A stretch of 64,000 bases of DNA from Patescibacteria group bacterium (GCA_041480845.1 JBGPAU010000001.1:5382-69381), one strand, 5' to 3'; shown: positions 3,847 through 63,996, numbered from the stretch's first letter. Numbers and translations: made by a program. The notes: generated by a model from the sequence alone, not told the origin.

Positions 3847-3866
3847 TGAGCCGAGAGTGGGGATCG
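3847..3866 (-). repeat. Orphan direct copy (19/19) of the tRNA-Thr 3' end, 53 bp beyond the gene.
   Basis: GAGCCGAGAGTGGGGATCG is identical to 3918-3936. Confidence 0.7.
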
Positions 3867-3918
3867 TGTGCATATTCTATACCTGGCACTATCGATACCC
3901 AAGAACGGCGACTTATGG

Positions 3919-3991
3919 AGCCGAGAGTGGGGATCGAACCCACGACCTGCGGTTTACGATACCGCCGCTCTACCAGCTGAGCTACCTCGGC
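3919..3991 (-). tRNA. tRNA-Thr (anticodon CGU).
   Basis: Cloverleaf folded by hand. Acceptor GCCGAGG/TCTCGGC, D-arm GCTCAGCTGGTAGAGC, anticodon arm GCGGU-AUCGUAA-ACCGC, T-arm GUGGG-UUCGAUC-CCCAC. Confidence 0.8.
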
Positions 3992-4006
3992 ATGGGTTAA
4001 TTATAT

Positions 4007-4035
4007 CACTTGAGGCTGGTTTGGGGGATGTGTAT
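4007..4035 (+). promoter_or_regulatory. Sigma70-like promoter: TTGAGG, 17-nt spacer, TATAAT.
   Basis: -35 and -10 hexamers with 17-nt spacing, about 20 bp upstream of the methyltransferase start. Confidence 0.35.
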
Positions 4036-4053
4036 AATTACGAGATCAAGAAA

Positions 4054-4749
4054 ATGACACATTCGTCTATTAAATTAAAGGAAGTTAAATCTTGGGATCA
4101 TTATTGGGAAGGGAACGGTATAAAAAACAAGAGATTTGTTTATAATGTTGTTGCTTCATCTTATAGGAGATTTTTAATAAGGCCATACCTGAACTATTTT
4201 ATGAAAAAGTATTTTAGGCAGCATGCGAAAGTTTTGCATGCAGGTTGTGGAGGTGGAGAGGCGGATATGAATTTGCAAAATTATTTAGATATAACTGCCT
4301 TAGATTTTTCTCAAAATGCGCTTAAGAAATACCGAATCAGACACATGGGGAAATGCTCAATTCTAACGGGGGACGTGCGATCTCTCAAATTTAAATCCTC
4401 ATCTTTTGATGGGGTCTACAATTTAGGTGTATTAGAACACTTTCAGAAAGATGATATAGAAAAAATTCTGAAAGGTTTTCATAGAGTTTTAAAGAAAGAC
4501 GGGACTTTAGTTATATTTTGGCCTCCGGAATTTGGGATAAGTGTGTCATTTTTTAAGATCCTTGTTTTTATTTGTAGGGGCATCCTGAATATTAATAATG
4601 TAGAATTCCATCCGGTCGAGGTTTCCCGGTTGCGGTCAAAAGCTGAAGCCAGGAAGATTTTTAAAGATTCCGGATTTCGTGTAATCGAATGCTCCTACGG
4701 GTTGCGGGATCTTTTTACATACGTAGTCATAGTAGCCAAGAAGAAGTAG
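4054..4749 (+). CDS. Class I SAM-dependent methyltransferase.
   Basis: Motif I (VLHAGCGGGE), motif post-I (LDFSQNAL) and motif II (DGVYNLGVLEHF) are present. Start set at MTHSS; the upstream part of the track ORF overlaps tRNA-Thr. Confidence 0.6.
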   Translation: MTHSSIKLKEVKSWDHYWEGNGIKNKRFVYNVVASSYRRFLIRPYLNYFMKKYFRQHAKVLHAGCGGGEADMNLQNYLDITALDFSQNALKKYRIRHMGKCSILTGDVRSLKFKSSSFDGVYNLGVLEHFQKDDIEKILKGFHRVLKKDGTLVIFWPPEFGISVSFFKILVFICRGILNINNVEFHPVEVSRLRSKAEARKIFKDSGFRVIECSYGLRDLFTYVVIVAKKK

Positions 4750-4752
4750 GCG

Positions 4753-6012
4753 TCAATAAAGGACCTTTTTGTAGAAAAAGTAATTCAACCCCTTATCCTT
4801 AATAACCTCAAAGGCTTTTATCGGGCTTTCAAATTGTCCCCTGAAAAACATAGGAAAAGTCAAATTATTGTTATGAATCATATTCGGTTTGTCGGTATAA
4901 TAATGGAAAATTGTCAGTAAATTCCAAGAAAAAAGCAAAATAAATAAGATCGCGATCTTTTTGACGCTTATTTTCTTGATAAAACTCGCCAGGCCGAAAG
5001 CAAAATAGGGTATCCCTCCAATTATCCACCTTTGTCCAAATTCAACCGAAATACTTGCCCAGAAGGAACAAAGAAGTATTAGCAGTGTAAGAGAAAGTAA
5101 AAATAGGAATTTGCGAGATTTGACCAAACCGATAAAACTAAATATATAAATAGGGGTCCAGGTAAAAAGTCCCCGTCTGGCTGTGAATAAAAATTCCATG
5201 ACTTTTGTAATTGAAATAGTGAATTGACTGATCCCGGCGCCTTCAGTTAAATAAGGCATGTGGAAAGCATTTCCGGACATAACATAATAACTCCAAAAAA
5301 GGGGGGAGGAAAAAACAACTGCGGAAATAAATATAGTCGCCCAGTTTTTAATTGCTGGAGAACCTTTTAGTATTTGCCAGTAAATTGGAATTAACAGAAT
5401 TATGTCGGCAACCCGGGTGATAAATAGAAGTCCCGATAATGCGCCAAAAAGAAAATAGTTTATAAATTTTTTGTCAAATTTGTAAGTCATGTAGAGCAGG
5501 AATGAGATTATAAAAAATGATGGTTGATGGGAAAGAGCCGGTTCAAAGGAAGAGTAATAAAATAAGTTTGAGGCAAAGAAGAAGAAAAGGACTGAAAAGG
5601 ACGCAATTTTTTTGGAAAAAAAGTTTTGCAAATACCTTTCAAGAAAATATAAACCTCCCATGACGAGAAGTATTCCGGTTAAACCCGGGCCAGCCTCAAA
5701 AACCATACTGAACCTATCGGAGGAAAAAAGAGAAATCAGAGCAACCGAAGGGATCCAAATGATTCCCGTGCCTATCGGATAGGGATTTATAGTCCGGTCC
5801 CAGAAAAAACGGCTGAATTCGCCCTTCACACCTTGAAATGTTCCCAGAGAGTGGTAAATTGGGCCGAAATTCAGGCCTTTGTCAAAAAAGAGTGCTTGGG
5901 TATAAGCGTAGAAGCCATTACCGTCTCCATAAATTCCATGTCTGATCGAAATTAAGTGGATTATAAAGATCGTGAAGCAGATGATAAAAAGCAAGAAATA
6001 TTTTTTCATCAC
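4753..6012 (-). CDS. Polytopic membrane protein, GT-C-like glycosyltransferase family (hypothetical).
   Basis: 419 aa, about 12 hydrophobic helices and aromatic-rich loops. A paralogue-like gene lies at 53519-54778. Confidence 0.4.
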   Translation of the reverse strand: MMKKYFLLFIICFTIFIIHLISIRHGIYGDGNGFYAYTQALFFDKGLNFGPIYHSLGTFQGVKGEFSRFFWDRTINPYPIGTGIIWIPSVALISLFSSDRFSMVFEAGPGLTGILLVMGGLYFLERYLQNFFSKKIASFSVLFFFFASNLFYYSSFEPALSHQPSFFIISFLLYMTYKFDKKFINYFLFGALSGLLFITRVADIILLIPIYWQILKGSPAIKNWATIFISAVVFSSPLFWSYYVMSGNAFHMPYLTEGAGISQFTISITKVMEFLFTARRGLFTWTPIYIFSFIGLVKSRKFLFLLSLTLLILLCSFWASISVEFGQRWIIGGIPYFAFGLASFIKKISVKKIAILFILLFSWNLLTIFHYYTDKPNMIHNNNLTFPMFFRGQFESPIKAFEVIKDKGLNYFFYKKVLY

Positions 6013-6029
6013 CGATTATATAACTATTG

Positions 6030-6100
6030 AGCGGGTAAGGGGAGTCGAACCCCTATCTGTTCCTTGGGAAGGAACCATTAGGCCGTTTAACTATACCCGC
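6030..6100 (-). tRNA. tRNA-Gly (anticodon CCC).
   Basis: Hand fold: acceptor GCGGGUA, anticodon arm GUUCC-UUCCCAA-GGAAC, T-arm AGGGG-UUCGACU-CCCCU. Confidence 0.75.
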
Positions 6101-6142
6101 ATTTAAGCTTGCGAGCATAATTATAGCACTGGCTACGCTTTC

Positions 6143-6679
6143 TTATCTAGGAAGCACGAAAACATTCCCCGCATGAATTATCCCGGGATTTACCAACTTA
6201 TTTGCTTTGGCAATTTCTACCCACTTAAATCCGTCCCCGTATGCCTTAACTGCAATATTCCATAGGCAATCTCCCTTAACAACTGTATATGTATTACCCG
6301 TAACTGGTAACACTTTAGCAACAGTTGCCACTTTCTTGGTTGATGTTGGTTGTTTTGGCGAAACGTCAGGAATAACCAATTTTTGTCCGACTTCGATAGT
6401 ATCGATTTTAAGTCCGTTTACCTTTTTTATATCTACCCAGTTATAACCGCTCCCAAAAGAATCTTCCGCGATTGACCAAAGAGTCTCTCCTTTTACTACA
6501 ACATGCTCCTTCGTACTAGTTTGAGTGGAAGTTCCCGGAATTGTTCCCGCGCTTTTGTCTTTAAAATAGTTAACAATCAGAACACCAACGATAACAATAA
6601 CGACAGCACCTAAGACCATGCTGATAGTTTCTTCATTTAACTTAATTTTTTTGAGGAAATTTTTTAGATCAAAATTCAA
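6143..6679 (-). CDS. LysM peptidoglycan-binding protein: N-terminal TM anchor plus two LysM domains.
   Basis: Two LysM-like repeats, VVKGETLWSIAE...GQKLVIP and YTVVKGDCLWNIA...GNVFVLP, after a TM segment. Confidence 0.7.
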   Translation of the reverse strand: MNFDLKNFLKKIKLNEETISMVLGAVVIVIVGVLIVNYFKDKSAGTIPGTSTQTSTKEHVVVKGETLWSIAEDSFGSGYNWVDIKKVNGLKIDTIEVGQKLVIPDVSPKQPTSTKKVATVAKVLPVTGNTYTVVKGDCLWNIAVKAYGDGFKWVEIAKANKLVNPGIIHAGNVFVLPR

Positions 6680-6812
6680 ATTTACTCACCCCGCTTCTTC
6701 AGGGCAGAAGTAGCCTGAATGTAAAGGAAGAACCAATTGAAGTCAAGTGGCTATTTGTTTAGAGAGTGTACATAGCTTGCACCATGTCTAAAATTATGCA
6801 ATGATCATTTAA

Positions 6813-7223
6813 ATGAATATAACCTCAAACATTAAAGGACAATTGGCTGTAAGTAAAACCGAACTTAGAGCATTGGAATTAGGATTTTTACCCTCCAGGC
6901 CGCTCTTTGATACAAGATACGACTTGATTATTGATGATCACGAATCTTTGGTTCGTGTACAAATTAAGTATGCTGACGGGAAATCTGCAAATAGTACTGG
7001 AGTTGTTGTAACAAAATTGGAATATATTGACAGGCAAAAGAAAACTTTTACATATAGGGATGAGGAGGTAGATGCCTTAATTGTGTATATCCCGAAAGTT
7101 GACAAACTGTGTTATATACCCAAAAAGCTGTTTATTGGGAAAAGAAAATTAAATATTCGAATTTCAAAATCCAAAAATAACCAGAAAAAAGGCATAATTG
7201 CGGCAGAAGACTATTACTGGTAG
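6813..7223 (+). CDS. Hypothetical 136-aa protein, possibly with a PD-(D/E)xK-like nuclease fold. Lies immediately upstream of the intron-containing tRNA-Asp.
   Basis: Intact ORF, basic C-terminus. D...EVD...K spacing (RDEEVDALIVYIPK) is weakly reminiscent of a restriction-endonuclease-like fold. Confidence 0.3.
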   Translation: MNITSNIKGQLAVSKTELRALELGFLPSRPLFDTRYDLIIDDHESLVRVQIKYADGKSANSTGVVVTKLEYIDRQKKTFTYRDEEVDALIVYIPKVDKLCYIPKKLFIGKRKLNIRISKSKNNQKKGIIAAEDYYW

Positions 7224-7226
7224 AAT
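7198..7226 (+). promoter_or_regulatory. Sigma70-like promoter for tRNA-Asp: TTGCGG, 17-nt spacer, TAGAAT.
   Basis: The hexamers put +1 about 8 nt before the tRNA 5' end. Confidence 0.35.
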
Positions 7227-7234
7227 ACGCATGT

Positions 7235-7524
7235 GGGGTCGTAGCTCAATGGCTAGAGCGCTTCCCTGTCAAATGTGGCAGCGCCCCGGTGTGAATTGGG
7301 GTGTAAAACCAGGCTAATTCGGGGAACATCCGGAGTTTATCGAAGGACAATCCCGAGCTAAATTTCTAGATAACGTTTTGGGCTGTAAGTCCTGAGCGAA
7401 GTCGAAGGATAAATGTGTAGAGACTATATACCTGGCTCCTTTTAAAGGATGATGAGATAGTCCAAACTTTTTGAAATAAGAAGGAGCACGGAAGAGGTTG
7501 CGAGTCCGAATCTCGTCGACCCCG
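7235..7524 (+). tRNA. tRNA-Asp (anticodon GUC) interrupted by a group I intron. Exon 1 is 7235-7269, exon 2 is 7487-7524.
   Basis: The 5' half (GGGGUCG-UA-GCUCAAUGGCUAGAGC-G-CUUCC-CUGU) and 3' half (CAC-GGAAG-AGGUU-GCGAG-UCCGAAU-CUCGU-CGACCCC-G) assemble into a canonical cloverleaf with anticodon loop CUGUCAC. Confidence 0.75.
7270..7486 (+). ncRNA. Group I self-splicing intron (about 217 nt) in the tRNA-Asp anticodon loop, inserted between nt 35 and 36.
   Basis: 5' exon ends in U; intron ends in G. Guide sequence GUGGCAG near the intron 5' end pairs with 5' exon CUGU (P1) and with 3' exon CAC (P10). P-like AAUUGGGG, Q-like AAUCCCGAG, R-like GUAGAGACUAUA and S-like GAGAUAGUCC elements are present. 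Confidence 0.7.
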
Positions 7525-7539
7525 CCCACATTTAAAGGA

Positions 7540-7860
7540 ATGGAATCTTTTAAACCAAGATGTCATCGCACAGTTGGGGAGGTTATGGAGATAGCCAATA
7601 CAGGATACGCCTCAAAAGTATCTGAGTGTATTCTAAATGGGGATTTAGCTCAGCTCCCCGATGAAGAAGCTCAAGGTATTCTTCGATTAGCGATTACCAA
7701 AGCCAGGTCATATTCGGAGGATATGGTGGTTCCGATTACACAGCCAGGTTTTGAAATCGAATATAATTTTAGACAAAGACAAACCGAGCGTTTAGACACG
7801 TTGGATTTCCACCATGGACCACTTAAAGATATAGTGAAAACCCTTTATAATGATGGTTGA
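7540..7860 (+). CDS. Hypothetical protein (106 aa).
   Basis: ORF with AAAGGA upstream of ATG. It overlaps the next gene by 4 bp (ATGA). Start chosen after the tRNA 3' exon. Confidence 0.35.
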   Translation: MESFKPRCHRTVGEVMEIANTGYASKVSECILNGDLAQLPDEEAQGILRLAITKARSYSEDMVVPITQPGFEIEYNFRQRQTERLDTLDFHHGPLKDIVKTLYNDG

Positions 7861-9602
7861 TGTTACCAACTACTTCTCCTTTAACAAATCTTGAAATTGC
7901 GGAACTGCTGCGCGATGTTGCAGCCGCTTACCGGTTTAAAGATCAAATGAGATATAAGTTCCAAATAATTGCCTATGAGCGGGCGGCGGATGCAGTAGAG
8001 CATGCTACGAGTGAGCTTAAGGACCTTTGGGATGATAAAAAGCTTGAGGAAGTGCCGGGAATCGGGCCCGGCATTGCCGAGCATCTTGATGAAATTTTCC
8101 GTACAGGAAAATCAAAACATTTTGAAAGTTTGATGAAAGGAATCCCTAAAGATGCATTTAAATTAATGGAACTTCCCGGAATAGGCATTAAAACTGCCAT
8201 GAAATTGATTAATGAGGGGTCTCGGAAAGAAGTAGAAGAAAAACTAAAAGAAGTTAAGGCAAAAGAAAAGAAGGCAAAAAGACACCTTTTGCCGTACGCT
8301 TCGCTTATCGCCTCAGAATTAATGGAGTATTTGCTGAAAAATAAGGCAGTAATGCGTGTGGACCCGCTAGGAAGCCTTAGACGCCAGGCATCAACCATAG
8401 GAGACATAGACCTTGCAGTGGCTACACGTAACCCTCTGGAAGTTTTGGAGTACTTTACAAAATATCCGAAATCCCAACAAACAATAGAGAAAGGAGAACA
8501 TACGGCGTCAATCCTTCTGCCGGGAGGTGTTCAGGTCGATCTGATGGCCCAACTGTCGGAATCTTATGGATCACTTCTTCAACATTTTACGGGGTCAAAG
8601 CATCACAATATTGCCCTGCGTGAATATGCCCTCAAAAAAGGATTGAGTTTATCGGAGTACGGAATAAAAGAACTAAAAAGGAGTGCATCACTTCGTGGGA
8701 AAAGTGAAAGACTAAAAGCGTTTTCTGATGAGAAAAAATTTTATAATTTTCTCGGTTTGGATTATATCGAGCCGGAACTTAGGGAAGATACGGGAGAAAT
8801 TGAAGCGGCTAAAGAGCACAGACTGCCAAGTTTAGTTGAGTTGAAAGATATAAAAAGTGATTTGCAGATCCATTCGAACTTTGATATAGAAACAAGCCAT
8901 GATTTAGGTGAGAGTAGTATGGAGGAAATAGTAAAAAAGGCAAATGAACTTAAATACGAATACATTGCGTTTACGGAACACAACCCTAGCCAACAGGGAC
9001 ATTCGGATACCCAAATTGTGGAGATTTTAAAAAAGAAGCGTGAAAAAGTAGATCAATTAAATTACTCACTAAAAAAGGATAGTAATAATGGAATACAAAA
9101 AGTGTTCAACAGCCTTGAAATTGACATAAAACCCGACGGGAGCCTTCCTATACCCGATTTAGGTCTGGATACACTCGACTTTGCATTGGTGTCAATTCAT
9201 TCGAGTTTTGAGCTTGAACGCGATATTCAAACCAAAAGAGTTCTTTCAGCCTTATCTCATCCGAAAGTGAAAATATTTGCTCATCCTACCGGGCGAAAAT
9301 TGAACGAAAGGGAAGGTGCGGAACTGAATTGGCCGGAAATTTTTGAATTTTGCCTGAAAAATAATAAGTTGATCGAAATTAATTGCGATCCTATGCGTCT
9401 TGATCTTCCGGACACGCTTGTCCGCGAAGCCGTGAAACTTGGTGTAAAATTATCCTTTGGGACGGACGCACACCATGTTGACGGAATGAATAATATGATT
9501 TTTGGAGTTTCCGTTGCCCGTCGCGGGTGGGCAACAAAGAATGATATAATCAATACTCGAACTCTTAATGAGTTCGAGATGTTTTTGAAAGAAGGTGAAT
9601 AA
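7857..9602 (+). CDS. polX: Family X DNA polymerase (Pol beta-like) with C-terminal PHP phosphoesterase domain (PolX).
   Basis: HhH motifs (VPGIGPGIAEHL, LPGIGIKTAMKL), nucleotidyltransferase GDIDLAV, and PHP motifs (HSNFD..., FTEHNP, GTDAHH). Confidence 0.8.
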   Translation: MMLPTTSPLTNLEIAELLRDVAAAYRFKDQMRYKFQIIAYERAADAVEHATSELKDLWDDKKLEEVPGIGPGIAEHLDEIFRTGKSKHFESLMKGIPKDAFKLMELPGIGIKTAMKLINEGSRKEVEEKLKEVKAKEKKAKRHLLPYASLIASELMEYLLKNKAVMRVDPLGSLRRQASTIGDIDLAVATRNPLEVLEYFTKYPKSQQTIEKGEHTASILLPGGVQVDLMAQLSESYGSLLQHFTGSKHHNIALREYALKKGLSLSEYGIKELKRSASLRGKSERLKAFSDEKKFYNFLGLDYIEPELREDTGEIEAAKEHRLPSLVELKDIKSDLQIHSNFDIETSHDLGESSMEEIVKKANELKYEYIAFTEHNPSQQGHSDTQIVEILKKKREKVDQLNYSLKKDSNNGIQKVFNSLEIDIKPDGSLPIPDLGLDTLDFALVSIHSSFELERDIQTKRVLSALSHPKVKIFAHPTGRKLNEREGAELNWPEIFEFCLKNNKLIEINCDPMRLDLPDTLVREAVKLGVKLSFGTDAHHVDGMNNMIFGVSVARRGWATKNDIINTRTLNEFEMFLKEGE

Positions 9603-9605
9603 ATA

Positions 9606-20769: not shown

Positions 20770-20805
20770 TTGTTCTTTTACTTTTCGTATGCGGGTGTAG
20801 CTTAT

Positions 20806-20880
20806 AGGCTGGTGGCTCAGTCCGGTTAGAGCGCCGCAGTTTAAATGCGGAGGTCGGAGGTTCAAGTCCTTCCCAGCCTA
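20806..20880 (+). tRNA. Class I tRNA with anticodon UUA (ochre-suppressor-like; derived from tRNA-Lys or similar).
   Basis: Acceptor AGGCUGG/CCAGCCU, D-arm GCUCAGUCCGGUUAGAGC, anticodon arm CCGCA-GUUUAAA-UGCGG (positions 34-36 = UUA), 5-nt variable loop, T-arm GGAGG-UUCAAGU-CCUUC. Confidence 0.5.
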
Positions 20881-20881
20881 T

Positions 20882-45833: not shown

Positions 45834-45870
45834 TAATTTTGAGCGGGATAGTCGTGGAGCGGGATAAGCA
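45834..45870 (-). repeat. Two orphan direct copies of the tRNA-Gly(UCC) 3' end plus flank: AATTTTGAGCGGGATAG at 45834-45851 and GAGCGGGATAAG at 45858-45869.
   Basis: Exact 17-nt match to 45894-45910 (the tRNA 3' end plus 7 nt of flank). Confidence 0.7.
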
Positions 45871-45900
45871 AAGCTTGTCCCTCTCAAAATCAGAATTTTG

Positions 45901-45971
45901 AGCGGGATAGGGGAGTCGAACCCCTCTTCACAGCTTGGAAAGCTGTTGTTAAGCCGATTAACTAATCCCGC
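45901..45971 (-). tRNA. tRNA-Gly (anticodon UCC).
   Basis: Acceptor GCGGGAU/AUCCCGC, anticodon arm ACAGC-UUUCCAA-GCUGU, T-arm AGGGG-UUCGACU-CCCCU. Confidence 0.75.
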
Positions 45972-45988: not shown

Positions 45989-46600
45989 TTATTTTCTGAA
46001 CTGATCGAGAACAGCAGGGTCATCATCGGGGTGAAGCATGACCAAGGCCCAATGATCATTTAAGGATCCGTCCTTTTTGTCATCGACCCAGAGTTTGTCA
46101 AGAACATCATACGGAATATAATAAACATTTTCCTCCCTAGTATTTATTACCCCGTAATTACCCTCTACCACTATTTCGTCTTTAGAAGGATCAATTATAA
46201 GTGCATATGGGACCTTTTGTATTTCTTTCAGTTGGGCCAAAATTATATAGTGGCCGTCAACCCCATCCACTTTTTTGCCCAAAACTTTATCCACACGTTC
46301 CAAACAATCTGTCACGTCGAGAACCATAACAACTCGTGCACTGGAAAGCAATTTTTCTACTTCTTCCTGCTTCCAATGCTCTCTAACAAGAATATGGGAG
46401 TCTGGAAGAAAACTTCTAGGCATTTCCGCAAGCTCATCAGGTTCGGTTCCCCATTCTGGATCCAAAACATGTATGTGAAGATCTTTTTGTTTAATGTGTT
46501 TTATTTCAAAAGCTTGTGCACCTGATTCGATTGTCCCATGAGCACATTTCCCGGCTTCGTTAAGTGGAATTCTTGGAATGTAAAAATATGTCTCTCTCAT
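45989..46600 (-). CDS. Hypothetical protein.
   Basis: ORF; start moved to MRETYF (46600) because the 16 codons upstream are encoded by the tRNA-Pro 3'-end repeat copy. Confidence 0.35.
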   Translation of the reverse strand: MRETYFYIPRIPLNEAGKCAHGTIESGAQAFEIKHIKQKDLHIHVLDPEWGTEPDELAEMPRSFLPDSHILVREHWKQEEVEKLLSSARVVMVLDVTDCLERVDKVLGKKVDGVDGHYIILAQLKEIQKVPYALIIDPSKDEIVVEGNYGVINTREENVYYIPYDVLDKLWVDDKKDGSLNDHWALVMLHPDDDPAVLDQFRK

Positions 46601-46605
46601 ATAAT

Positions 46606-46625
46606 AGTCGGAGTGCCCGGGCTCG
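46606..46625 (-). repeat. Orphan direct copy (20/20) of the tRNA-Pro 3' end plus 1 nt of flank.
   Basis: AGTCGGAGTGCCCGGGCTCG is identical to 46679-46698. Confidence 0.7.
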
Positions 46626-46679
46626 CCGTGCACATGCCAAGTTAGCACTATCGCGACCGAAACTCTGACGAATCATCGA

Positions 46680-46755
46680 GTCGGAGTGCCCGGGCTCGAA
46701 CCGGGGACCTCCACGTCCCAAACGTGGCGCTCTAACCAACTGAGCTACACTCCGA
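46680..46755 (-). tRNA. tRNA-Pro (anticodon UGG).
   Basis: Acceptor CGGAGUG, anticodon arm CCACG-UUUGGGA-CGUGG, T-arm CCCGG-UUCGAGC-CCGGG. Confidence 0.8.
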
Positions 46756-46847
46756 TATATGTATTTTACCATTTCGTCGAGAAATGGCCAAGCTTAGCTT
46801 CTCATTATTAATAGACCTTTTTCCCTTAATTATCGTAAAATGGCTAT

Positions 46848-47643: not shown

Positions 47644-47680
47644 GTGCCGAGGGCGGTACTATACTCGGACTTACTCGGAT
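47644..47680 (-). repeat. Orphan copy of the tRNA-Leu(UAA) 3' end (GTGCCGAGGGCGG, 13/13) followed by scrambled T-loop-like ACTCGGA x2. Lies about 590 bp beyond the tRNA 3' end.
   Basis: Matches 48248-48260. Segment 47681-48247 contains a single ORF. Confidence 0.55.
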
Positions 47681-48247: not shown

Positions 48248-48331
48248 TGCCGAGGGCGGGACTCGGACCCGCATGAGTTATGCACTCGAGGGCTCTTAAG
48301 GCCCTTGCGTATACCATTTCGCCACCTCGGC
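48248..48331 (-). tRNA. tRNA-Leu (anticodon UAA), class II.
   Basis: Acceptor GCCGAGG, anticodon arm AGGGC-CUUAAGA-GCCCU, long variable arm, T-arm GCGGG-UCCGAGU-CCCGC. Confidence 0.8.
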
Positions 48332-48584
48332 TAATTAAATTCGTTAAAGATCTCTTTTTTCATCCACACCCTCCCTGATCTAGACTTAAGATATTTCTCT
48401 TTCTTTAGTGCATCAATTTTATTAGAATAACTCTCAAGATAAATTAAAATCCAAGGTTTATATCTCTTAGTAAAATAACTTCTTCCATCATTATGTTCAT
48501 TCAATCTCCGTTCAGGGTTGTCTGTAATACCTACTTAACTTTTAATCTTGATTGTGCTTAACAGCACATAAATGTAATACATTT

Positions 48585-48633
48585 ACCATTTCGTCCGCCT
48601 AGGCTCGCGCCTAGCGAGACTGGCCACCTCGGC
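48585..48633 (-). pseudogene. tRNA-Leu 5' fragment: 20-nt copy of GCCGAGGUGGC|GAAAUGGUA interrupted after nt 11 by a 30-nt palindromic insert (CAGTCTCGCTAGGCGCGAGCCTAGGCGGAC). Lies 5 bp downstream of tRNA-Arg.
   Basis: Aligns to 48312-48331 of the intact tRNA-Leu(UAA). No matching 3' half nearby. Confidence 0.5.
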
Positions 48634-48638
48634 TCGGG

Positions 48639-52568: not shown

Positions 52569-52623
52569 TGTGTCCCTGGACAGAATCGAACTGTCATCTC
52601 CTCCTTAGAAGGGAGATGCTCTA
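52569..52623 (-). repeat. Orphan 55-nt direct copy of the 3' two-thirds of tRNA-Arg(UCU) (3' end through anticodon arm), 97 bp beyond the intact gene.
   Basis: Identical to 52666-52720. Confidence 0.7.
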
Positions 52624-52667
52624 CCTCGTTGGACGCGGCAAGCTACGCTTATCCGTTGACCTCGCTG

Positions 52668-52739
52668 TGTCCCTGGACAGAATCGAACTGTCATCTCCTC
52701 CTTAGAAGGGAGATGCTCTATCCGTTGAGCTACAGGGAC
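52668..52739 (-). tRNA. tRNA-Arg (anticodon UCU).
   Basis: Acceptor GUCCCUG, anticodon arm UCUCC-CUUCUAA-GGAGG, T-arm GACAG-UUCGAUU-CUGUC. Confidence 0.8.
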
Positions 52740-54785: not shown

Positions 54786-54858
54786 TGCCGAGAGGCTGAG
54801 TCGAACAGCCATTTGACGCTCTTCAGGCGCCCGCCGTGACCACCTTGGCTATCTCGGC
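54786..54858 (-). tRNA. tRNA-Phe (anticodon GAA).
   Basis: Acceptor GCCGAGA/UCUCGGC, anticodon arm GGCGC-CUGAAGA-GCGUC, T-arm GGCUG-UUCGACU-CAGCC. Confidence 0.7.
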
Positions 54859-54866
54859 AAAATCAT

Positions 54867-55000
54867 ATTTTGACGAGACAAGATTCCTCTTATCTCGGCA
54901 TGAACGAAGTGAATGCGGAGACAAGCTCTGCTTATCTCGGCGCTTCACCATTATTTTGCCGAGACAAGGTTCTAGCGAAGCCAGGTTCATATCTCGGCAT
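54867..55000. repeat. Tandem array of three extra imperfect hairpin units (about 40-59 bp each). Each unit is GRCGAGACAAG...YTATCTCGGC, where the 3' arm is a copy of the tRNA-Phe 5' end (TATCTCGGC).
   Basis: TATCTCGGC occurs at 54850, 54892, 54933 and 54992. GNCGAGACAAG occurs at 54872, 54915 and 54958. The arms are mutually complementary. Confidence 0.6.
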
Positions 55001-55208: not shown

Positions 55209-55228
55209 TGTGCCAAGGGCGGGAGTTG
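55209..55228 (-). repeat. Orphan copy (18/20) of the tRNA-Leu(CAG) 3' end, 50 bp beyond the gene. Forms a 7-bp hairpin with a downstream complement (TGCCAAG...CTTGGCA).
   Basis: TGTGCCAAGGGCGGGAGTTG versus AGTGCCGAGAGCGGGAGTTG at 55278-55297. Confidence 0.55.
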
Positions 55229-55279
55229 TATGCAAGACATATACAATGCTTGGCATTATCAAGCCCCGATCGAGGCAAG

Positions 55280-55363
55280 TGCCGAGAGCGGGAGTTGAAC
55301 CCGCACGCTCTTTCGAGCACACGCTCCTGAAGCGTGCCTGTCTGCCAATTCCAGCACCTCGGC
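55280..55363 (-). tRNA. tRNA-Leu (anticodon CAG), class II.
   Basis: Acceptor GCCGAGG, anticodon arm CACGC-UUCAGGA-GCGUG, long variable arm, T-arm GCGGG-UUCAACU-CCCGC. Confidence 0.8.
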
Positions 55364-56772: not shown

Positions 56773-56854
56773 GCCCTCGTGGCGCAATTGGTAGACGCGT
56801 ACGCTTTAGGAGCGTATTCCTTACGGATTAGAGGTTCGAGTCCTCTCGAGGGCA
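56773..56854 (+). tRNA. tRNA-Leu (anticodon UAG), class II.
   Basis: Acceptor GCCCUCG/CGAGGGC, anticodon arm UACGC-UUUAGGA-GCGUA, long variable arm, T-arm AGAGG-UUCGAGU-CCUCU. Confidence 0.8.
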
Positions 56855-57095
56855 CAAGTTGGGGCTACGGTCCTGAGCTTGTCGAAGGATTCGACTCCTC
56901 CCCTCGGCACACTTCTTGACTTTAATTTGTAGCCAACTATACTTCTTTCTGATTCTCAATTAAGCCAGTTTTGTTGGCTAAAAAAGGAATTATTTCGCTC
57001 ATTTACACATAAAAGGAGGTGGTGAGAAAGGTAAACCGTTTGTTTACGCCACGGGAACTTTCCCGACTCTGTTCATTCCCTAAAGGAGGGAATAA

Positions 57096-57730: not shown

Positions 57731-57866
57731 GGCTTTGTGTTAATATAAATTATGGAGTCTAAACTTCTTCACATCCATAAAATGAATCGATCCACCCTCG
57801 ATCACGTTCTGTTTATGGTGATCCCGATTTTGGTCTTTTTTGCGGCCTTGGCACTACTTCTAAGAT

Positions 57867-58373
57867 ATGTTTAAACAAATTATTCTTCCCATTCTGGCTG
57901 TTGTGATATTTATCATCATCGTCGGACTTTTTGTCCAAAAATCCTCTTCCTTGGGTCTTTCAGGTTTAAAAACTCCGACTCCGATAGCAAAGTCCGAAAA
58001 AACTATTACGGTTGGAGCCAAAAAAATTCAAGTTCAAATCGCCGATAACGCAGAGAAAAGGGCCAAAGGCCTTTCGGGCGTAGCTTCCCTCAAAGCGGAT
58101 AGCGGTATGCTTTTTGTGTTTGACACTAAAGACCTTGCTCCAATTTTTTGGATGAAAGACATGCTGATTCCACTTGACATGATTTGGATACGAGACGGGA
58201 AAATCGTAAAGATCGATAAAAATGTTCTGATTCCGTCTCCCGGCACTCCCGACAGTAATTTAAAGACATACTCTGCCGGACAAACCGTTGACTACGTGCT
58301 TGAGGTGAACGCAGGCTTCTCAAATCAAAACAATATTAAAGTGGGTGACAGCGTTGATCTATCCGGAATTTAA
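57867..58373 (+). CDS. DUF192 (COG1430) domain protein, membrane-anchored.
   Basis: N-terminal TM and the conserved DUF192 core (GLSG...MLFVF......FWMKDMLIPLDMIWI). Confidence 0.6.
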   Translation: MFKQIILPILAVVIFIIIVGLFVQKSSSLGLSGLKTPTPIAKSEKTITVGAKKIQVQIADNAEKRAKGLSGVASLKADSGMLFVFDTKDLAPIFWMKDMLIPLDMIWIRDGKIVKIDKNVLIPSPGTPDSNLKTYSAGQTVDYVLEVNAGFSNQNNIKVGDSVDLSGI

Positions 58374-59606: not shown

Positions 59607-59829
59607 CGCTTACTTCCTCCAACCTCCACCCCAAAGTTTCGGTATCAAATCGAAGTTTCATGGCTAAAGTTTTTGTGGAGACAGAAAAGATATGATAGAG
59701 GACTCGGCCCTCGCGAAAGGTATAGTGCAGACCGACTTTTTCAATTTTATGAACACGGGCCCGCCATTTAACCCACTTTGGAAAATCACTCATTCCGACT
59801 GTTACTTTTTCGTCAATCGCCTCTGCCAT
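59596..59829 (-). CDS. Small hypothetical protein upstream of, and overlapping, dinB. Probably co-transcribed.
   Basis: 77-aa ORF with an 11-bp overlap with the dinB start. Confidence 0.35.
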   Translation of the reverse strand: MAEAIDEKVTVGMSDFPKWVKWRARVHKIEKVGLHYTFREGRVLYHIFSVSTKTLAMKLRFDTETLGWRLEEVSDGI

Positions 59830-59875
59830 ACTTACTTGTAACCCGAATAAAATACGAAGTCAAGCACTATTATTT

Positions 59876-59930
59876 TATACAAATAGCGCGCAGTCCTGAG
59901 TGAAATCGAAGGACAAGTATATCTTTCTAT
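59876..59930 (+). promoter_or_regulatory. Second copy of the conserved element (TATACAAATAGCGCGC + hairpin AGUCCUGAGUGAAAUCGAAGGAC + ATCTTTCT), in the divergent region upstream of the dinB operon.
   Basis: About 40/55 identity to 31213-31268, with compensatory stem changes. Confidence 0.4.
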
Positions 59931-59963
59931 TGATATTTTCAAAATTTAAAATAATATAAGATT

Positions 59964-60185
59964 GTGACATTACAAGGAGGTTTTGCTAAAGGACAATTAA
60001 GAGATGTCGTAGGAGTCGGCAGTGTTATAAATGCGGAGGGGCATCAGGGTGTCTCTAAGGCGCATAAAATAGAAGATATTATTATTAACGTAGAAGAAAA
60101 AGGGTTGGTAAAGAAAAAGTCCATTGGTGAGGCACCTATGAATAATCCCAGCTTTGGAACGAGTCCTTCCGAAAAAAAAGCCTGA
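59964..60185 (+). CDS. Small hypothetical ORF (73 aa).
   Basis: ORF only. Confidence 0.2.
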   Translation: MTLQGGFAKGQLRDVVGVGSVINAEGHQGVSKAHKIEDIIINVEEKGLVKKKSIGEAPMNNPSFGTSPSEKKA

Positions 60186-60213
60186 AGTCTTCTTTTTGTG
60201 CTACAGTTAATAT

Positions 60214-60558
60214 ATGCCCTTTCTATATATTGCAATCGTAACGCCGATTAGCTACAAGATTTGGAATTATCTTAGCCATCCTGATTCCAAGATTTGGAAA
60301 AAACTGCCTCAAATAGGAGTGAGGTGGTTCCAGTTATTTCCGAGTATCAGAATTTTCATTAAAGGAAGAGTAATACATTTTCATCACTGGTTCAGTCTTT
60401 CAATTCTGCTTTGTATTTCAATATTCGTGACGGGAGGAATACTCGATTCCTGGATTACAAGGGGAGCCCTTATGGGTGGAATCATACAAGGTCTTACGAT
60501 AAAAAGCCCAACTGCCAGAAAAATATTTTATCGTAAAATAATAGATGTCAAGCTTTAA
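60214..60558 (+). CDS. Small membrane protein, hypothetical.
   Basis: 114 aa with 3 hydrophobic helices. Confidence 0.3.
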   Translation: MPFLYIAIVTPISYKIWNYLSHPDSKIWKKLPQIGVRWFQLFPSIRIFIKGRVIHFHHWFSLSILLCISIFVTGGILDSWITRGALMGGIIQGLTIKSPTARKIFYRKIIDVKL

Positions 60559-61573
60559 AAGTTTTATTTATTATTTTCTAATTGCCTTAGTTTTTGTTTT
60601 TATAGGTTGGTACGGAAATACAGCATACCATCTTCCTAAAAATTCCAATCCGATATCTCAGATTAAGCCGACACCTCTTCTTAAATATATGATTGAGAAT
60701 CTTTCGGCGGCAACATTTAAACCCTCAACAATTGAGATCGGCAAAGTTCTTAAAGATGATCCTAAATATACTTCGTATGAATTTACCATGAAGTTTTCTC
60801 CCGATTTTTCCGAAAATCTCAAAACCACATCGGGCATGATCAATATTCCCAAAGGAACCGGTCCCTTTCCTGTAATAATCATGTTCAGAGGTTATGTGGA
60901 TCAAAAACTTTATGTAATCGGGGAGGGGACCGCCCCTTCCGCCAAAGTTTTTGCTCAAAACGGATTTATTACAATTGCACCTGACTTTTTGGGATACGGA
61001 GAAAGTGACACTGAGGCAGGAAACATTTTTGAATCCCGTTTCCAAACATATGTAACAGCGGCTACTTTATTGAAATCTATTTCCGACCCAGCCTTCGCTA
61101 AAGCTACGGCGGGCAAATCGGACTTGAAAAATATTTTCATCTGGGGACATAGTAACGGCGGGCAAGTCGCTTTAACAACGCTTGAAATAACCGGGGTTAC
61201 CTATCCAACAGTTCTTTGGGCTCCCGTATCTAAACCTTTTCCTTTTTCAATTCTTGCATATCTTGACGAAGCTTCAGACAGTGGAAAACTCATAATCGGT
61301 AAGCTTGCCGAATTTAACGAAACATATGACGCTTCCAAATTTTCACTAACCGAATATTTTGACAAAATTAAGGCTCCGATTCTGTTAAATCAGGGTACGG
61401 CAGATACCTCGGTTCCTTACTGGTGGAGCGATTCTTTAGTCAAAACAATGAAAGCGACTGGCGTTGACATCACTTACATAAAATATCCGGGTGCCAATCA
61501 TAACCTCGTTCCTTTCTGGAACCAAACAGTGGAGAATTCGATAAACTACTTCAAGTCACACCTTACAAAGTAA
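60545..61573 (+). CDS. Alpha/beta hydrolase (dienelactone hydrolase/S9 peptidase-like).
   Basis: Signal anchor, GxSxG nucleophile elbow (WGHSNGG), and a downstream D/H. Confidence 0.6.
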   Translation: MSSFKSFIYYFLIALVFVFIGWYGNTAYHLPKNSNPISQIKPTPLLKYMIENLSAATFKPSTIEIGKVLKDDPKYTSYEFTMKFSPDFSENLKTTSGMINIPKGTGPFPVIIMFRGYVDQKLYVIGEGTAPSAKVFAQNGFITIAPDFLGYGESDTEAGNIFESRFQTYVTAATLLKSISDPAFAKATAGKSDLKNIFIWGHSNGGQVALTTLEITGVTYPTVLWAPVSKPFPFSILAYLDEASDSGKLIIGKLAEFNETYDASKFSLTEYFDKIKAPILLNQGTADTSVPYWWSDSLVKTMKATGVDITYIKYPGANHNLVPFWNQTVENSINYFKSHLTK

Positions 61574-61707
61574 AGATAGCAACTCTTTCAAAATCCGCTA
61601 CAACTAGCTTATTTATACACATGATATTTCTTTAGCAAACATCATATCTACTATCTTTTGAAACTTTTAGACAATTACCATTTCGTTTCGAAATGGCCAA
61701 GCTTTGC

Positions 61708-61968
61708 TTATTGTCTTGGTTCCATCGGGCGGGCTATGTTGACATTAATCTTGCGGCCTTTAAGGTCTGCTTGATTAAACATCTCAATAGATTTCTTGGC
61801 CTCTTCGTCGCTTGACATGGTTACAAAACCAAATCCGCGGCTTCTTCCGGTCATTTTGTCGCTTATTACGGCGGCATCAACAACTGCTCCGGCACCTGCA
61901 AAGAGGGCCTTAAGGTCATCTGCCGTGACTTCCCACGACAAATTTCCTACAAAAAGTTTAGATTGCAT
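61708..61968 (-). CDS. RNA-binding protein with single RRM.
   Basis: RNP-2 (LFVGNL) and RNP-1 (RGFGFVTM). Confidence 0.8.
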   Translation of the reverse strand: MQSKLFVGNLSWEVTADDLKALFAGAGAVVDAAVISDKMTGRSRGFGFVTMSSDEEAKKSIEMFNQADLKGRKINVNIARPMEPRQ

Positions 61969-62310
61969 TTAAATTAAAAATTCACCTCCTCTCATGTCGA
62001 AGTCGGTCAAAGGCGAAGCTCAAAAAATTGAAGCTCACTATCCCTTGAAAACTCTGGTGATAGTATATAATATTCTTAGTCAAATGGCAAATAGTACCAA
62101 GAAAGAGGCAGTTGTTCCCAAAATCCCGACTTTGAGCTTTGGCGGTGGAAGGCCGTCTATATTCTCGGCAAATAAGGGATTTATACCCAAAGGGGCCCAA
62201 AGGGGAAAATTTAATCAGGCCACGTTTCACACCCAACACAAAGGGGGACCCTCGGGCGGGAAGTAAATTCCCCAATTGCCAATTTACAATTAACAATTTA
62301 CAATTGCAGC

Positions 62311-63192
62311 ATGCCTGATAAAATTACCTCCGTAATTGCCCGCGAAAGCGACGGAAACATCCAAATTACTTTTACGATTCCTTTCTCCGTGGTAAAGGCC
62401 GCAAACGAAGAAACCATAAAGGAATTTGCAAAAGACACCGAAATTCCGGGATTCAGGAAAGGCATGGCTCCTCTTGATAAAGTTGCCGAAAAAATTCCCC
62501 AAAATAAGCTTATTGAACGCTCCCTCAGCCATATTTTACCAAAGGCTCTTGCCGAATCGGTCAACGAAAACAAGCTCAAGATTGCCGTTTATCCCAAATT
62601 TGAATTAATTAGTGCAGAGGAAGGAAAAGATTGGCAAATAAGAGGAATTACCTGCGAGCTTCCCGAAGTTGCCTTGGGTGATTACAAAAAGGCAATCGGG
62701 GGCGCCTCACATGCTTCTGCCATTTGGACTCCCGATAAAGGTAAACCGGAAGAAAAGAAGGAGCCGACCCGCGAAGAGAGGGAACAGGTAGTCGTAAAGG
62801 CACTTCTTGACAACGTAAAAGTAACTATTCCAAAAATACTCATTGAAGAAGAGGCAGATAGCCGTCTTTCAAATCTTCTGGCACGGCTTGAAAAGCTCGG
62901 CCTTGCTCTTGAAAACTATCTTGCTTCCATAGGCAAAAAAGCCGAAGATCTTCGCGCCGATTATGCCAATCAGGCAAAAGATGCTATTTCGCTCGATTTG
63001 ATCTTATCTAAAGTCGCCGAAAGCGAAGGAATTAAAATTGATCCAAAAGAAGTGGATACCGCCCTCAATATGTCCCAAGCCGCAAAACCGGATAATAATG
63101 CGCACACGGAAGACAACGAAAGCCGAAAGCGTCTTATTGAATCCATTCTTAAACGACGCGCCGCTCTGGACTTTCTAATTAAGTTGAGTTAA
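62311..63192 (+). CDS. tig: Trigger factor, short form: ribosome-binding N-domain plus C-domain, with no obvious FKBP PPIase domain.
   Basis: Signature GFRKGMAPL in the N-domain. 293 aa, versus about 430 for canonical trigger factor. Confidence 0.6.
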   Translation: MPDKITSVIARESDGNIQITFTIPFSVVKAANEETIKEFAKDTEIPGFRKGMAPLDKVAEKIPQNKLIERSLSHILPKALAESVNENKLKIAVYPKFELISAEEGKDWQIRGITCELPEVALGDYKKAIGGASHASAIWTPDKGKPEEKKEPTREEREQVVVKALLDNVKVTIPKILIEEEADSRLSNLLARLEKLGLALENYLASIGKKAEDLRADYANQAKDAISLDLILSKVAESEGIKIDPKEVDTALNMSQAAKPDNNAHTEDNESRKRLIESILKRRAALDFLIKLS

Positions 63193-63204
63193 ACTCGGCC
63201 CATA

Positions 63205-63834
63205 ATGACAGACCAAAAGAAAAAGACGCGGGAGCTCCGCACAAAGCAGAATGTACTCGAATCCCTTAAAGACTTAGGGATTGGCGCCGGTTCCCAAACC
63301 GGAGATTTTCTAAAAAATACTTCCGAAGACTTTTTCAAGGAATTAATGGGTTTTTCCGTGCCCAAAGTCAAAAGAAGCGGAGAACTTTCCGCAGGACAAT
63401 CTCTTCAGATGAGTGAAGTAATGAGCGGAAAAGAAGAGGAAAATAAGCACCTTCGTGCTCAAATCTCTCTGGAAAGACAGCTTTCGAGTGATGAAAAACG
63501 CGTCTCGCAGGAAAAAGGCAACGAACTCAGGGTCCAACTTCAGGCTTTGATGCAGGAAGTTCAAAAAGTTGCCGCCAGTACCCAAAACCTTGCAGAAGTT
63601 ACTCAGGTGTCCATGATGACTGCTCCTGTCGAGCCCGGAGTCTATCATATTACTTTTTTCCAAAATGTTTTGGAATTTTTACAGTCTTTCAGAAAGAGAA
63701 TAGATTACACCGTAGCCTGGCTTCAAAGTTCCAATAAGCGTGCCGAAAAGAAAAACTACTGGGCTATGTACAAAAAGAAGGGCAGTTCTTTCCTTCTTTC
63801 CCCCGACCATTATCTTCAAAGATCGGCCGGATAA
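63205..63834 (+). CDS. Hypothetical protein (coiled-coil-rich).
   Basis: 209-aa ORF with no recognisable motif. Confidence 0.35.
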   Translation: MTDQKKKTRELRTKQNVLESLKDLGIGAGSQTGDFLKNTSEDFFKELMGFSVPKVKRSGELSAGQSLQMSEVMSGKEEENKHLRAQISLERQLSSDEKRVSQEKGNELRVQLQALMQEVQKVAASTQNLAEVTQVSMMTAPVEPGVYHITFFQNVLEFLQSFRKRIDYTVAWLQSSNKRAEKKNYWAMYKKKGSSFLLSPDHYLQRSAG

Positions 63835-63844
63835 TCCGTTTCGA

Positions 63845-63866
63845 CGAGTGGACGCTGGAGGGCTCG
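63845..63866 (-). repeat. Orphan direct copy (22/22) of the tRNA-Val(GAC) 3' end plus 4 nt of flank, 53 bp beyond the gene.
   Basis: CGAGTGGACGCTGGAGGGCTCG is identical to 63919-63940. Confidence 0.7.
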
Positions 63867-63922
63867 TGCGCACAACCATAACACGAGCGCTATTGAGACC
63901 CCACGGACACGAGCGAAGCGAG

Positions 63923-63996
63923 TGGACGCTGGAGGGCTCGAACCCCCGACCTCATTCACGTCAAGAATGCGCTCTAACCAACTGAGCTAAGCGTCC
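63923..63996 (-). tRNA. tRNA-Val (anticodon GAC).
   Basis: Acceptor GGACGCU, anticodon arm CAUUC-UUGACGU-GAAUG, T-arm GGGGG-UUCGAGC-CCUCC. Confidence 0.8.

Follow-up and report, generated by a model that had tools for sequence, protein, structure and literature searches.

Why should several tRNA genes of one bacterium each be followed by a second copy of their own 3′ end, and what occupies the short space in between? The question is raised by a stretch of 64,000 nucleotides (nt) from Patescibacteria group bacterium GCA_041480845.1 (JBGPAU010000001.1:5382-69381), the whole of which is called the window here. The window is chromosomal DNA from the Woesebacteria, a group within the Candidate Phyla Radiation (CPR), and the named homologues and loci closest to it come from Woesebacteria metagenome-assembled genomes; it encodes DnaE, UvrABC, LexA, PPDK, and trigger factor. 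CPR members are thought to be poor in mobile DNA. We put at about even the chance that the copies are displaced ends of tRNA and transfer-messenger RNA (tmRNA) genes carrying small, hairpin-forming insertion modules that lack an open reading frame (ORF). These modules are apparently a new, lineage-wide family that duplicates the ends of tRNA and tmRNA genes and has no described counterpart; we found no description of them in the literature.

Displaced tRNA ends and the modules beside them

ARAGORN places 18 tRNAs in the window, to which a tRNA-Asp gene split by a group I intron has to be added; Rfam was also run. Six tRNAs are followed on the same strand by a copy of their own 3′ end, at a gap of 43 to 55 nt as measured on ARAGORN coordinates. 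Five of the copies are exact (Thr, 19 nt; Gly-UCC, 17 nt; Pro, 20 nt; Arg-UCU, 55 nt; Val-GAC, 22 nt), and the Leu-CAG copy matches at 18 of 20 positions. An earlier note on this DNA had listed all six, with coordinates that prove to be right within 1 nt. Fourteen-mers shared with tRNAs occur at 65 non-tRNA positions of the window, whereas 300 shuffles gave 0.37 on average and 4 at most, and the window holds no further tRNA copy of at least 14 nt besides a Val-UAC 14-mer that overlaps the Val-GAC copy. Two weaker items in the same note stand only in part. The 13-mer behind tRNA-Leu(UAA) exists, but chance yields ~3 matches of such length per window, and what makes it suggestive is solely its position, its strand, and a following motif that resembles the leading motif TCGN5CTCGT of the E1 module described below. 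The sequence behind tRNA-Leu(UAG) is also there, but it resembles the 3′ part of another Leu tRNA allele and has an intact T-loop. The tRNA-Leu(UAG) of the nearest relative (L179, 5836-5870) is followed, after only 20 nt and without a module, by a 15-nt copy of its 3′ end; not every copy is of the E1 or E2 type.

Errors of assembly or binning are a general risk with metagenome assemblies, and the earlier note had raised the possibility that the copies are misassembled. At least four assemblies from other samples match these window regions at 99.96 to 100% identity with zero indels, and homologous units are present in the complete chromosomes OY970314.1 and CP066686.1 and in ~60 metagenome contigs. 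The samples in which this population is present include SRR35959930, SRR29605724, and JGI 3300052988/9. Because independent assemblies reproduce these regions, copies included, at such identity, the copies are not an assembly artefact, and we give an origin in assembly or binning practically no weight.

The spacers behind the Thr, Pro, Val-GAC, and Leu-CAG tRNAs of the window, and behind tRNA-Leu(GAG) of relative L003, share a conserved module of ~55 nt, E1, which lies between two copies of the segment running from T-loop nt 56 to the gene end. It consists of the leading motif TCGN5CTCGT directly past the tRNA (missing in the Thr unit), an arm of 12 to 15 nt, TYG, ATA, GTGC, a loop of 13 to 19 nt with the consensus CCAAGTAAGGnA..., (T)GCAC, A, and then the copy of nt 56 to 74. 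The distance from repeat to repeat is 70 to 81 nt, about 75.

The displaced copy pairs with the E1 arm, serving as the 3′ arm in an imperfect hairpin. Among 36 distinct exact-repeat units, a T-loop CAA is answered by TTG in the arm in 15 of 15 cases and CGA by TCG in 21, one of them ACG. Across 39 aligned units, the Y-R pair is CG in 24, UA in 14, and another combination in 1 (covariation in 38 of 39), the partner of the unpaired T-loop base N59 shows 19 double changes, and the apical stem covaries from U-A to C-G three times and from G-C to A-U once. The number of double-change cells is 64, compared with 23 ± 4 in shuffles, and the signal collapses when the partners are slid. The arms pair better with the copy of their own tRNA (−12.7 kcal/mol) than with copies of other tRNAs (−9.3 kcal/mol; permutation p < 5e-5), and therefore the arm complements the displaced end. 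It does not duplicate the partner strand of the tRNA itself, since it pairs with loop bases that always stay unpaired in the tRNA.

Other readings of E1 were tried and rejected. As a decayed tRNA body, the spacer portion preceding the apical motif scores 5.2 against nt 24 to 53 of its own tRNA and 4.8 against other tRNAs, which is not a significant difference. As a translation-start cassette, with a Shine-Dalgarno-like loop and NTG in the stem, it would need a long NTG frame, and in 36 units this frame is no longer than the other two. The same count bears out the suggestion of the earlier note that ORFs 3124-3873 and 45989-46648 gain spurious N-terminal extensions from the copies; downstream ORFs begin 5 to 8 nt past the copy. 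Neither a sigma-70 promoter nor a T-run or intrinsic terminator was found in E1, the spacing from TYGATA to TAnAAT being merely ~13 nt. An Rfam 15 scan matched tRNA, tmRNA, and one group I intron and left the modules uncovered even at E ≤ 5.

A mirror image of E1 is found at 5′ ends. This second module, E2 (~43 nt), follows the D-loop GGTA and lies between two copies of tRNA nt 1 to 20. Its order is the copy of nt 1 to 20 or 21, ending in GGTA or GGATA, the H2 motif AAGCRAAGCTTGGCCA, an arm partly complementary to the 5′ copy, a −10 box, and the intact tRNA. There are 22 distinct cases, with a spacer typically of 42 to 44 nt. Based on its −35 and −10 boxes, E2 is predicted to supply the promoter of its tRNA, and the spacing is similar in other loci. 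Each of the three 5′-type units in tandem upstream of tRNA-Phe is made up of a copy of nt 1 to 9 (GCCGAGATA), an apical piece (in the second unit, AGCAGAGCTTG), the arm TGTCTCGGCA or a variant of it, and a short spacer. The unit behind tRNA-Gly(UCC) carries H2 in reverse, and its bottom-strand junction joins GGGATA to AGCAAAGCTTG; three more reverse H2 units (L002, L015, and L080) follow the same rule, GRTA joined to AGC. The occurrence of H2 in both orientations with the same junction points to an insertion preference at the level of DNA.

Two further sequences bear on H2. An orphan H2 motif, AAGCAAAGCTTGGCCA, with the hairpin CCATTTCGAAACGAAATGG and TAATTG, lies at 61667-61709 (−) and is very like the tRNA-Pro promoter, with no tRNA or Rfam RNA downstream. 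In L034, at ~10496 (+) / 2887 (−), a tRNA-Arg-like copy upstream of an intact tRNA-Arg(CCG) has a perfect 26-nt palindrome, AAGCAGAGCTTGGCCAAGCTGCGCTT, in its D-loop, which may be the full form of the H2 module.

Spread among genes and turnover among relatives

The comparison set comprises 77 loci (72 GTDB loci around dinB, 4 others, and the window) with 301 tRNAs. In it, direct 3′ copies follow tRNAs in 28 cases and direct 5′ copies precede them in 10, with none inverted and none on the wrong side, and the breakpoints are fixed, at nt 55/56 in the 3′ type and after GGTA in the 5′ type. E1 accounts for 17 of the 28 3′ copies, in 11 loci that are all Woesebacteria-like. About 6% of tRNAs carry E1, different ones in different genomes, and about 1 in 10 tRNA genes in the sampled Woesebacteria loci bears a module. 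The apical core motif occurs at chance overall (63 seen versus ~73 expected), and within 120 nt behind tRNAs it is enriched 14-fold (14 versus ~1 expected).

The Joint Genome Institute (JGI) metagenomes were scanned once with the E1 apical pattern, which returned 94 stretches. Fifty-eight matches lie 23 to 39 nt behind tRNAs of at least 15 anticodon types; several of the other stretches are behind tmRNA genes, and the remainder are GC-rich chance matches. Relatives and metagenomes together hold ~50 distinct E1 units, behind at least 15 tRNA types and tmRNA, and ~80% of the copies are perfect over at least 19 nt although the rest of the unit diverges. The tmRNA (ssrA) genes of L103 (2345-2741), L112, and L139 have E1 together with a perfect copy of their tRNA-like 3′ end. 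E1 is confined to Woesebacteria in the data examined. Since the leading and apical motifs are common to units behind so many tRNA types and tmRNA, the module must have spread between genes. One of the explanations offered in the earlier note, an undescribed process that duplicates tRNA 3′ termini, comes closer to these data, but it needs to be widened to 5′ termini and to tmRNA.

An analogous unit of Saccharibacteria type has a spacer of 135 to 170 nt and a copy that extends from C56 to the end of the encoded CCA. It sits behind the tRNA's own hairpin-plus-T-run terminator, which is followed by an element of ~110 nt with the common motif CTTTACAAATTGT and then by the C56-CCA copy, the 3′ arm of a long hairpin (z of −3 to −4.6).

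The spread of E1 bears directly on the idea that the units are immobile local debris, left by tandem duplication of a tRNA, a palindromic insertion and internal deletion in one copy, and slippage that keeps the end identical. The Arg-UCU unit, an almost full-length second copy with a D-loop insert, looks like such debris, as does the L034 copy with its perfect palindrome; the Phe units resemble internally deleted mini-tRNAs (5′ 9 nt plus 3′ acceptor strand), and arrays and homogenisation are indeed seen. However, debris does not account for a 30-nt apical module and leading motif that recur, at an identical nucleotide, in tmRNA and at least 15 tRNA types, nor for an arm complementary to loop bases that always stay unpaired in the tRNA, and the spacer upstream of the apical motif is not significantly like its own tRNA (5.2 versus 4.8, as above). 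We consider this origin improbable.

Besides having reached many tRNA and tmRNA genes, the module shows turnover: relatives differ by gains or losses of units. Precise empty sites are found despite identical tRNAs at Pro in L001, where the ORF begins 4 nt past the tRNA without a displaced copy, at Val-GAC in L005 and L006, and at Arg-UCU in L179, from which the whole 97-nt unit is missing. Conversely, tRNA-Lys(CUU) has E1 in L005 and L179 and none in the window. Two-unit arrays occur in L008, L084/L154, L143, and L179. The comparison of orthologous loci proposed in the earlier note does find copies that vary in presence, but no kilobase-scale cargo in the 77 loci.

Where units are retained, the copy tends to change with the live gene. 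Among orthologous Phe units, those of the window have GCCGAGATA...TCTCGGCA and those of L179 GCTGAGATA...TCTCAGCA, matching the difference in the tRNA acceptor stem exactly, and the Lys-CUU E1 units of L005 and L179 have leading motif and arm in common, each with the 3′ end of its own tRNA. Repeat expansion and contraction would give such homogenisation of copy and gene; selection would too. In cases of mismatch, the copy can resemble the allele of another genome: the displaced Leu-CAG copy has 2 mismatches to the live tRNA and is identical to the tRNA 3′ end of L006, and L123 is similar.

A serious alternative, and the main rival, is that the units are cis-acting expression modules under selection, spread only occasionally and by recombination. 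E2 would then be a promoter cassette and E1 a trailer hairpin, an acceptor/T-arm "minihelix" mimic with a part in processing, insulation, termination, or the 5′ end of the downstream mRNA, and the copy would be required for structure. H2 holds the −35 box of a well-spaced tRNA-Pro promoter (TTGGCC, 17 nt, TAAAAT); E1 types follow tRNA identity across genomes; copies and arms track the live tRNA, as in the Phe units of the window and L179 and the Lys-CUU units of L005 and L179; perfect copies make up ~80% amid divergent units; downstream ORFs begin 5 to 8 nt past the copy; and hairpin covariation and copy tracking fit equally well. In contrast, E1 is present on ~6% of tRNAs, differing by genome, and close relatives with an identical tRNA do without it. 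H2 is found in both orientations relative to the tRNA, the Saccharibacteria-type analogue comes after a terminator belonging to the tRNA itself, E1 lacks a sigma-70-type promoter, a T-run, and an Rfam match, G-U pairs are not in excess over A-C pairs, and slippage in tandem arrays can explain the homogenisation without selection. The earlier note had held that its case would fall if the copies proved to be conserved parts of a structured transcript; the copies do turn out to be parts of a conserved, structured element, which may act either as RNA or as DNA. Taken together, we regard selected cis-acting modules as a rather unlikely explanation.

GIY-YIG genes and other features of the window

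At tRNA-Leu(UAA) the 5′-type unit bears an ORF. In the window, L089, and L086, a GIY-YIG ORF occupies the D-loop junction, with a 5′ tRNA-Leu copy on one side and the intact tRNA-Leu on the other; the domain is encoded only in these three units and in no E1 or E2 unit. The GIY-YIG-bearing units have the same junction as the modules and a different module sequence. More widely, minimal GIY-YIG genes are strongly tied to tRNAs, 10 of 13 lying within 170 nt of a tRNA and 8 of 13 within 30 nt; the 87-amino-acid ORF of L072 is an intact example. The displaced tRNA-Leu 5′ copies of L086 and L089 also carry a GC-rich palindromic insert like that in the window, e.g., CCTGCCTGCGCAGGCAGG in L089, and this insert makes a third class among the small hairpins inserted into tRNA fragments.

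The ORF at 48334-48582 is either a pseudogene or read through by a tRNA with the anticodon UUA that lies 28 kb away, at 20805-20881 (+). This tRNA is well formed (Rfam tRNA, 66.8 bits) and would read the stop codon UAA. TAA terminates 19 of the 31 longest reading frames of the window despite its presence, and there is no equivalent among the 518 tRNAs of related loci. The split tRNA-Asp(GUC), at 7236-7530 (+), has its group I intron (Rfam, 54.7 bits) in the anticodon loop and was missed by ARAGORN; a PD-(D/E)XK endonuclease ORF (PF11645) at 6813-7223 (+) ends 13 nt upstream of it. Coordinates of the tRNAs, copies, and units are collected in Table 1.

Table 1. Positions of tRNA genes, displaced copies, and units in the window and of the Saccharibacteria-type units in other loci
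Feature	Coordinates	Strand	Remarks
tRNA-Thr(CGU)	3919..3991	−	nt 56-74 (3918-3936) is the upstream repeat
Copy of tRNA-Thr nt 56-74, 19/19	3848..3866	−	3′ arm of hairpin
E1 behind tRNA-Thr	3867..3917	−	atypical leading part and arm, 3896-3915; apical TCGATAGTGC-loop-GCACA, 3867-3895
tRNA-Gly(UCC)	45901..45971	−	ARAGORN, Rfam
Reverse H2-type unit behind tRNA-Gly(UCC)	45835..45893	−	arm, 45878-45893; reversed core CAAGCTTTGCT, 45867-45877
Copies in the Gly(UCC) unit	45857-45866; 45835-45851	−	partial copy TATCCCGCTC (10 nt); 17-nt copy including 7-nt trailer
tRNA-Pro(UGG)	46680..46754	−	ARAGORN, Rfam
tRNA-Pro 3′-end copy, 20/20	46606..46625	−	missing in relative L001
E1 behind tRNA-Pro	46626..46679	−	leading motif TCGATGATTCGT, 46668-46679; arm, 46654-46667; apical CGATAGTGC-loop-GCACGG, 46626-46653
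H2 motif AAGCTAAGCTTGGCCA before tRNA-Pro	46763..46800	−	−35 TTGGCC, 17 nt, −10 TAAAAT; no intact 5′ copy left
tRNA-Leu(UAA) 3′-end copy, 13 nt	47644..47656	−	590 nt downstream; marginal
ORF-bearing 5′-type unit at tRNA-Leu(UAA) (48248-48331)	48334..48634	−	copy of nt 1-20 at 48584-48634
GC-rich 30-nt insert in Leu(UAA) 5′ copy	48593-48622	−	
83-codon GIY-YIG ORF (PF01541, 55 bits)	48334-48582	−	in-frame TAA at codon 16; ends at tRNA start
Pseudo-copy of tRNA-Arg(UCU) nt 12-74	52569..52659	−	behind intact gene, 52668-52739; D-loop piece, 52650-52659; 26-nt H2-like insert AGCGTAGCTTGCC..., 52624-52649; 55 identical nt, 52569-52623
Three tandem 5′-type units upstream of tRNA-Phe (54786-54858)	54871..54998	−	fold as strong hairpins, z = −7.7
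tRNA-Leu(CAG) 3′-end copy	55210..55228	−	18/20 over 55209-55228; tRNA gene, 55280-55363
E1 behind tRNA-Leu(CAG)	55229..55278	−	apical stem ATGC/GCAT, not GTGC/GCAC
Leu tRNA 3′ fragment (T-arm and acceptor strand)	56887..56910	+	32 nt behind tRNA-Leu(UAG), 56773-56854; no module
tRNA-Val(GAC) 3′-end copy, 22/22	63845..63866	−	tRNA gene, 63923-63996; copy missing in L005 and L006
E1 behind tRNA-Val(GAC)	63867..63921	−	leading motif TCGCTTCGCTCGT, 63909-63921; arm, 63897-63908; apical TCAATAGCGC-loop-GCGCA, 63867-63896
Saccharibacteria-type units	L043 5976-6165; L060 13495-13662; L070 3680-3867 and 18122-18272		

A possible mechanism and its relation to known systems

The duplicated segment always reaches the nearer gene end, which explains the survival of an intact gene; if the units are insertion modules, the gene would be rebuilt on one side and the insertion would be harmless. 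The conserved apical stem-loop sits at the break, and the displaced end pairs with the imperfect, target-specific arm to give a hairpin that imitates the double-stranded target. This hairpin is the putative substrate of a nuclease or recombinase acting in trans on units that would be non-autonomous; candidate enzymes are the minimal GIY-YIG nuclease that occurs at this D-loop junction and a tyrosine or HUH enzyme from another part of the genome. Once inserted, units would behave as short tandem repeats, expanding, contracting, being lost by repeat-mediated deletion, and being homogenised with the live tRNA end. It is a more tentative proposal, possible but doubtful, that the modules are a class of minimal mobile element not named before, or a product of nuclease-driven break repair, that colonises both elbow loops of tRNA and tmRNA genes, duplicates the gene end, carries only a conserved apical stem-loop together with a promoter (5′) or trailer (3′) that keeps the target alive, builds a complementary arm for each target, and may be mobilised by GIY-YIG nucleases of ~85 amino acids.

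Several points weigh against insertion modules of this kind. Folds of single sequences are just modestly better than shuffles (z of +0.6 to −2.7), and DNA structure cannot be distinguished from RNA structure because G-T and A-C mismatches are about equally frequent (18 versus 16). We know of no mechanism that re-templates an arm on each new target. Free or donor copies of E1 away from tRNA and tmRNA genes are absent from the 77 loci and the JGI scan, and across genomes the leading motifs and arms of E1 group according to tRNA type, which also fits old, vertically inherited, possibly functional units. No integrase, transposase, or recombinase is encoded in the 64-kb window (~50 ORFs scanned), and viral contigs gave one chance match to the E1 pattern and none to the H2 pattern, a single sequence variant of each being used. 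There is no insertion polymorphism among four near-identical assemblies, and no event was caught in the act because the nearest other relatives are only ~83% identical in protein, with none between 83% and 100%.

Genomic islands and prophages placed in tRNA and tmRNA genes by tyrosine integrases are a close described parallel. Under the Islander criteria they are recognised by a tRNA or tmRNA gene with a displaced direct fragment, a tyrosine integrase gene between the two, and multigene cargo on the kilobase scale, tmRNA also being used (PMC4383910), and the attB of Ms6 lies in the T-loop of a tRNA-Ala gene (PMC1762012). Like islands, the modules split and rebuild their target, leave beside the intact gene its own direct displaced fragment from T-loop to gene end, and use tmRNA. 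In contrast to islands, they amount to ~75 bp in total without integrase or cargo, have an apical stem-loop exactly at the T-loop break and an arm that is a complement rather than a copy, and include a mirror-image 5′/D-loop class and reverse-orientation units. The spacers, of 43 to 170 nt, have no ORF and hence no integrase between gene and fragment, and no repeat pair in the 77 loci is more than 700 nt apart, as kilobase-scale cargo would require.

The earlier note had likened the repeats to attL and attR and offered repeated integration followed by decay or deletion as one of two explanations. The geometry holds: behind an intact tRNA lies a displaced direct copy whose start is in the T-loop, and tmRNA genes are hit as well. 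Decay of integrase-borne elements is not supported: the spacer is one module of ~55 nt with fixed motifs, fixed length, and covariation rather than heterogeneous debris, the window has no integrase or transposase, the 77 loci have no kilobase-scale pair of tRNA and fragment, and viral contigs gave no real counterpart of the two single-variant motifs. We therefore consider it quite improbable that the copies are classical attL/attR scars of tyrosine-integrase prophages or islands using the T-loop sublocation, with nearly all cargo deleted and the spacer a remnant of an attP arm. Such scars would account for the island-mapping signature (an intact gene with a displaced same-strand fragment starting in the T-loop; PMC4383910), for the use of tmRNA, and for a displaced Leu-CAG copy that looks ancestral beside a live end that looks imported, and without the apical insert the arm and copy would form a pseudo T-arm. 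They would not account for a uniform period of 70 to 81 nt in ~50 distinct units, none with cargo or integrase. Nor do 5′ copies broken at the D-loop and reverse units with 8- to 10-nt copies follow an integrase pattern, and the arm complements the T-loop bases (TTG for CAA, TCG for CGA) instead of copying them.

Other known systems resemble the modules in part. Integron attC sites and the attP(+) of CTX phage, which is used by XerCD, are imperfect, bubbled hairpins whose stem imitates a double-stranded recombination site; they are conserved in structure, variable in sequence, and arrayed. The modules are likewise imperfect hairpins with unpaired bubbles and a variable loop, in arrays beside a fixed site. 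Unlike attC, their stem is the neighbouring tRNA end, the units have no R″/R′ boxes (RYYYAAC / GTTRRRY) and no dif-like site, and the window has no integrase.

MITEs (miniature inverted-repeat transposable elements) and small palindromic repeats (Correia, REP/REPIN, and Rickettsia palindromic elements) end in fixed terminal repeats, duplicate a short target stretch of set length, sometimes carry promoters, and are scattered between genes, and MITEs depend on an enzyme supplied in trans. In common with them, the modules are free of ORFs, tens of bases long, hairpin forming, and multicopy, and E2 carries a promoter. However, the "repeat" of a module is the target's own end, and modules are found solely at tRNA and tmRNA genes. 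There are no constant terminal inverted repeats, since arm and copy change with the tRNA, and no fixed short duplication, its length being 8 to 10, 19 to 22, or 20 to 21 nt and always extending to the gene end. No autonomous relative with a transposase was found in the window or the sampled loci.

Phage T4 SegB is a free-standing GIY-YIG homing endonuclease gene in a tRNA cluster. Here too small GIY-YIG genes lie among tRNA genes, in three loci at the D-loop junction beside a duplicated tRNA 5′ end, but the proteins are catalytic domains of ~85 amino acids without a DNA-binding domain, the window ORF has an in-frame stop, and most units have no ORF. Plant mitochondrial t-elements and mitochondrial tRNA punctuation are tRNA-like processing signals in transcripts. 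By analogy, an acceptor/T-arm mimic directly before an ORF could be cut by tRNA-processing enzymes; unlike t-elements, the modules have the T-loop replaced by a conserved stem-loop, are patchy among close relatives, and are in part antisense or behind a terminator.

Some further likenesses are candidates only. The step from TYG to ATA may resemble the Rep nick site of pC194 and phiX174 (CTTG followed by ATA) and the IS91 target CTTG/GTTC, and TTATGCGCAC may be XerC-arm-like. Staggered integration of a Cas1- or casposase-like kind is another such comparison, and the duplication length of 8 to 21 nt argues against a fixed stagger.

If the modules are mobile, few known target-specific elements would be as small, and they would represent a new, harmless route into an essential gene, through end duplication together with a target-mimicking hairpin. 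If instead they function as RNA, they would constitute a new cis element linked to tRNAs. Either way, they are a hazard in annotation, as a source of spurious ORF starts, pseudo-tRNA calls, and false "island" signatures, and the presence or absence of units is a fine-scale strain marker.

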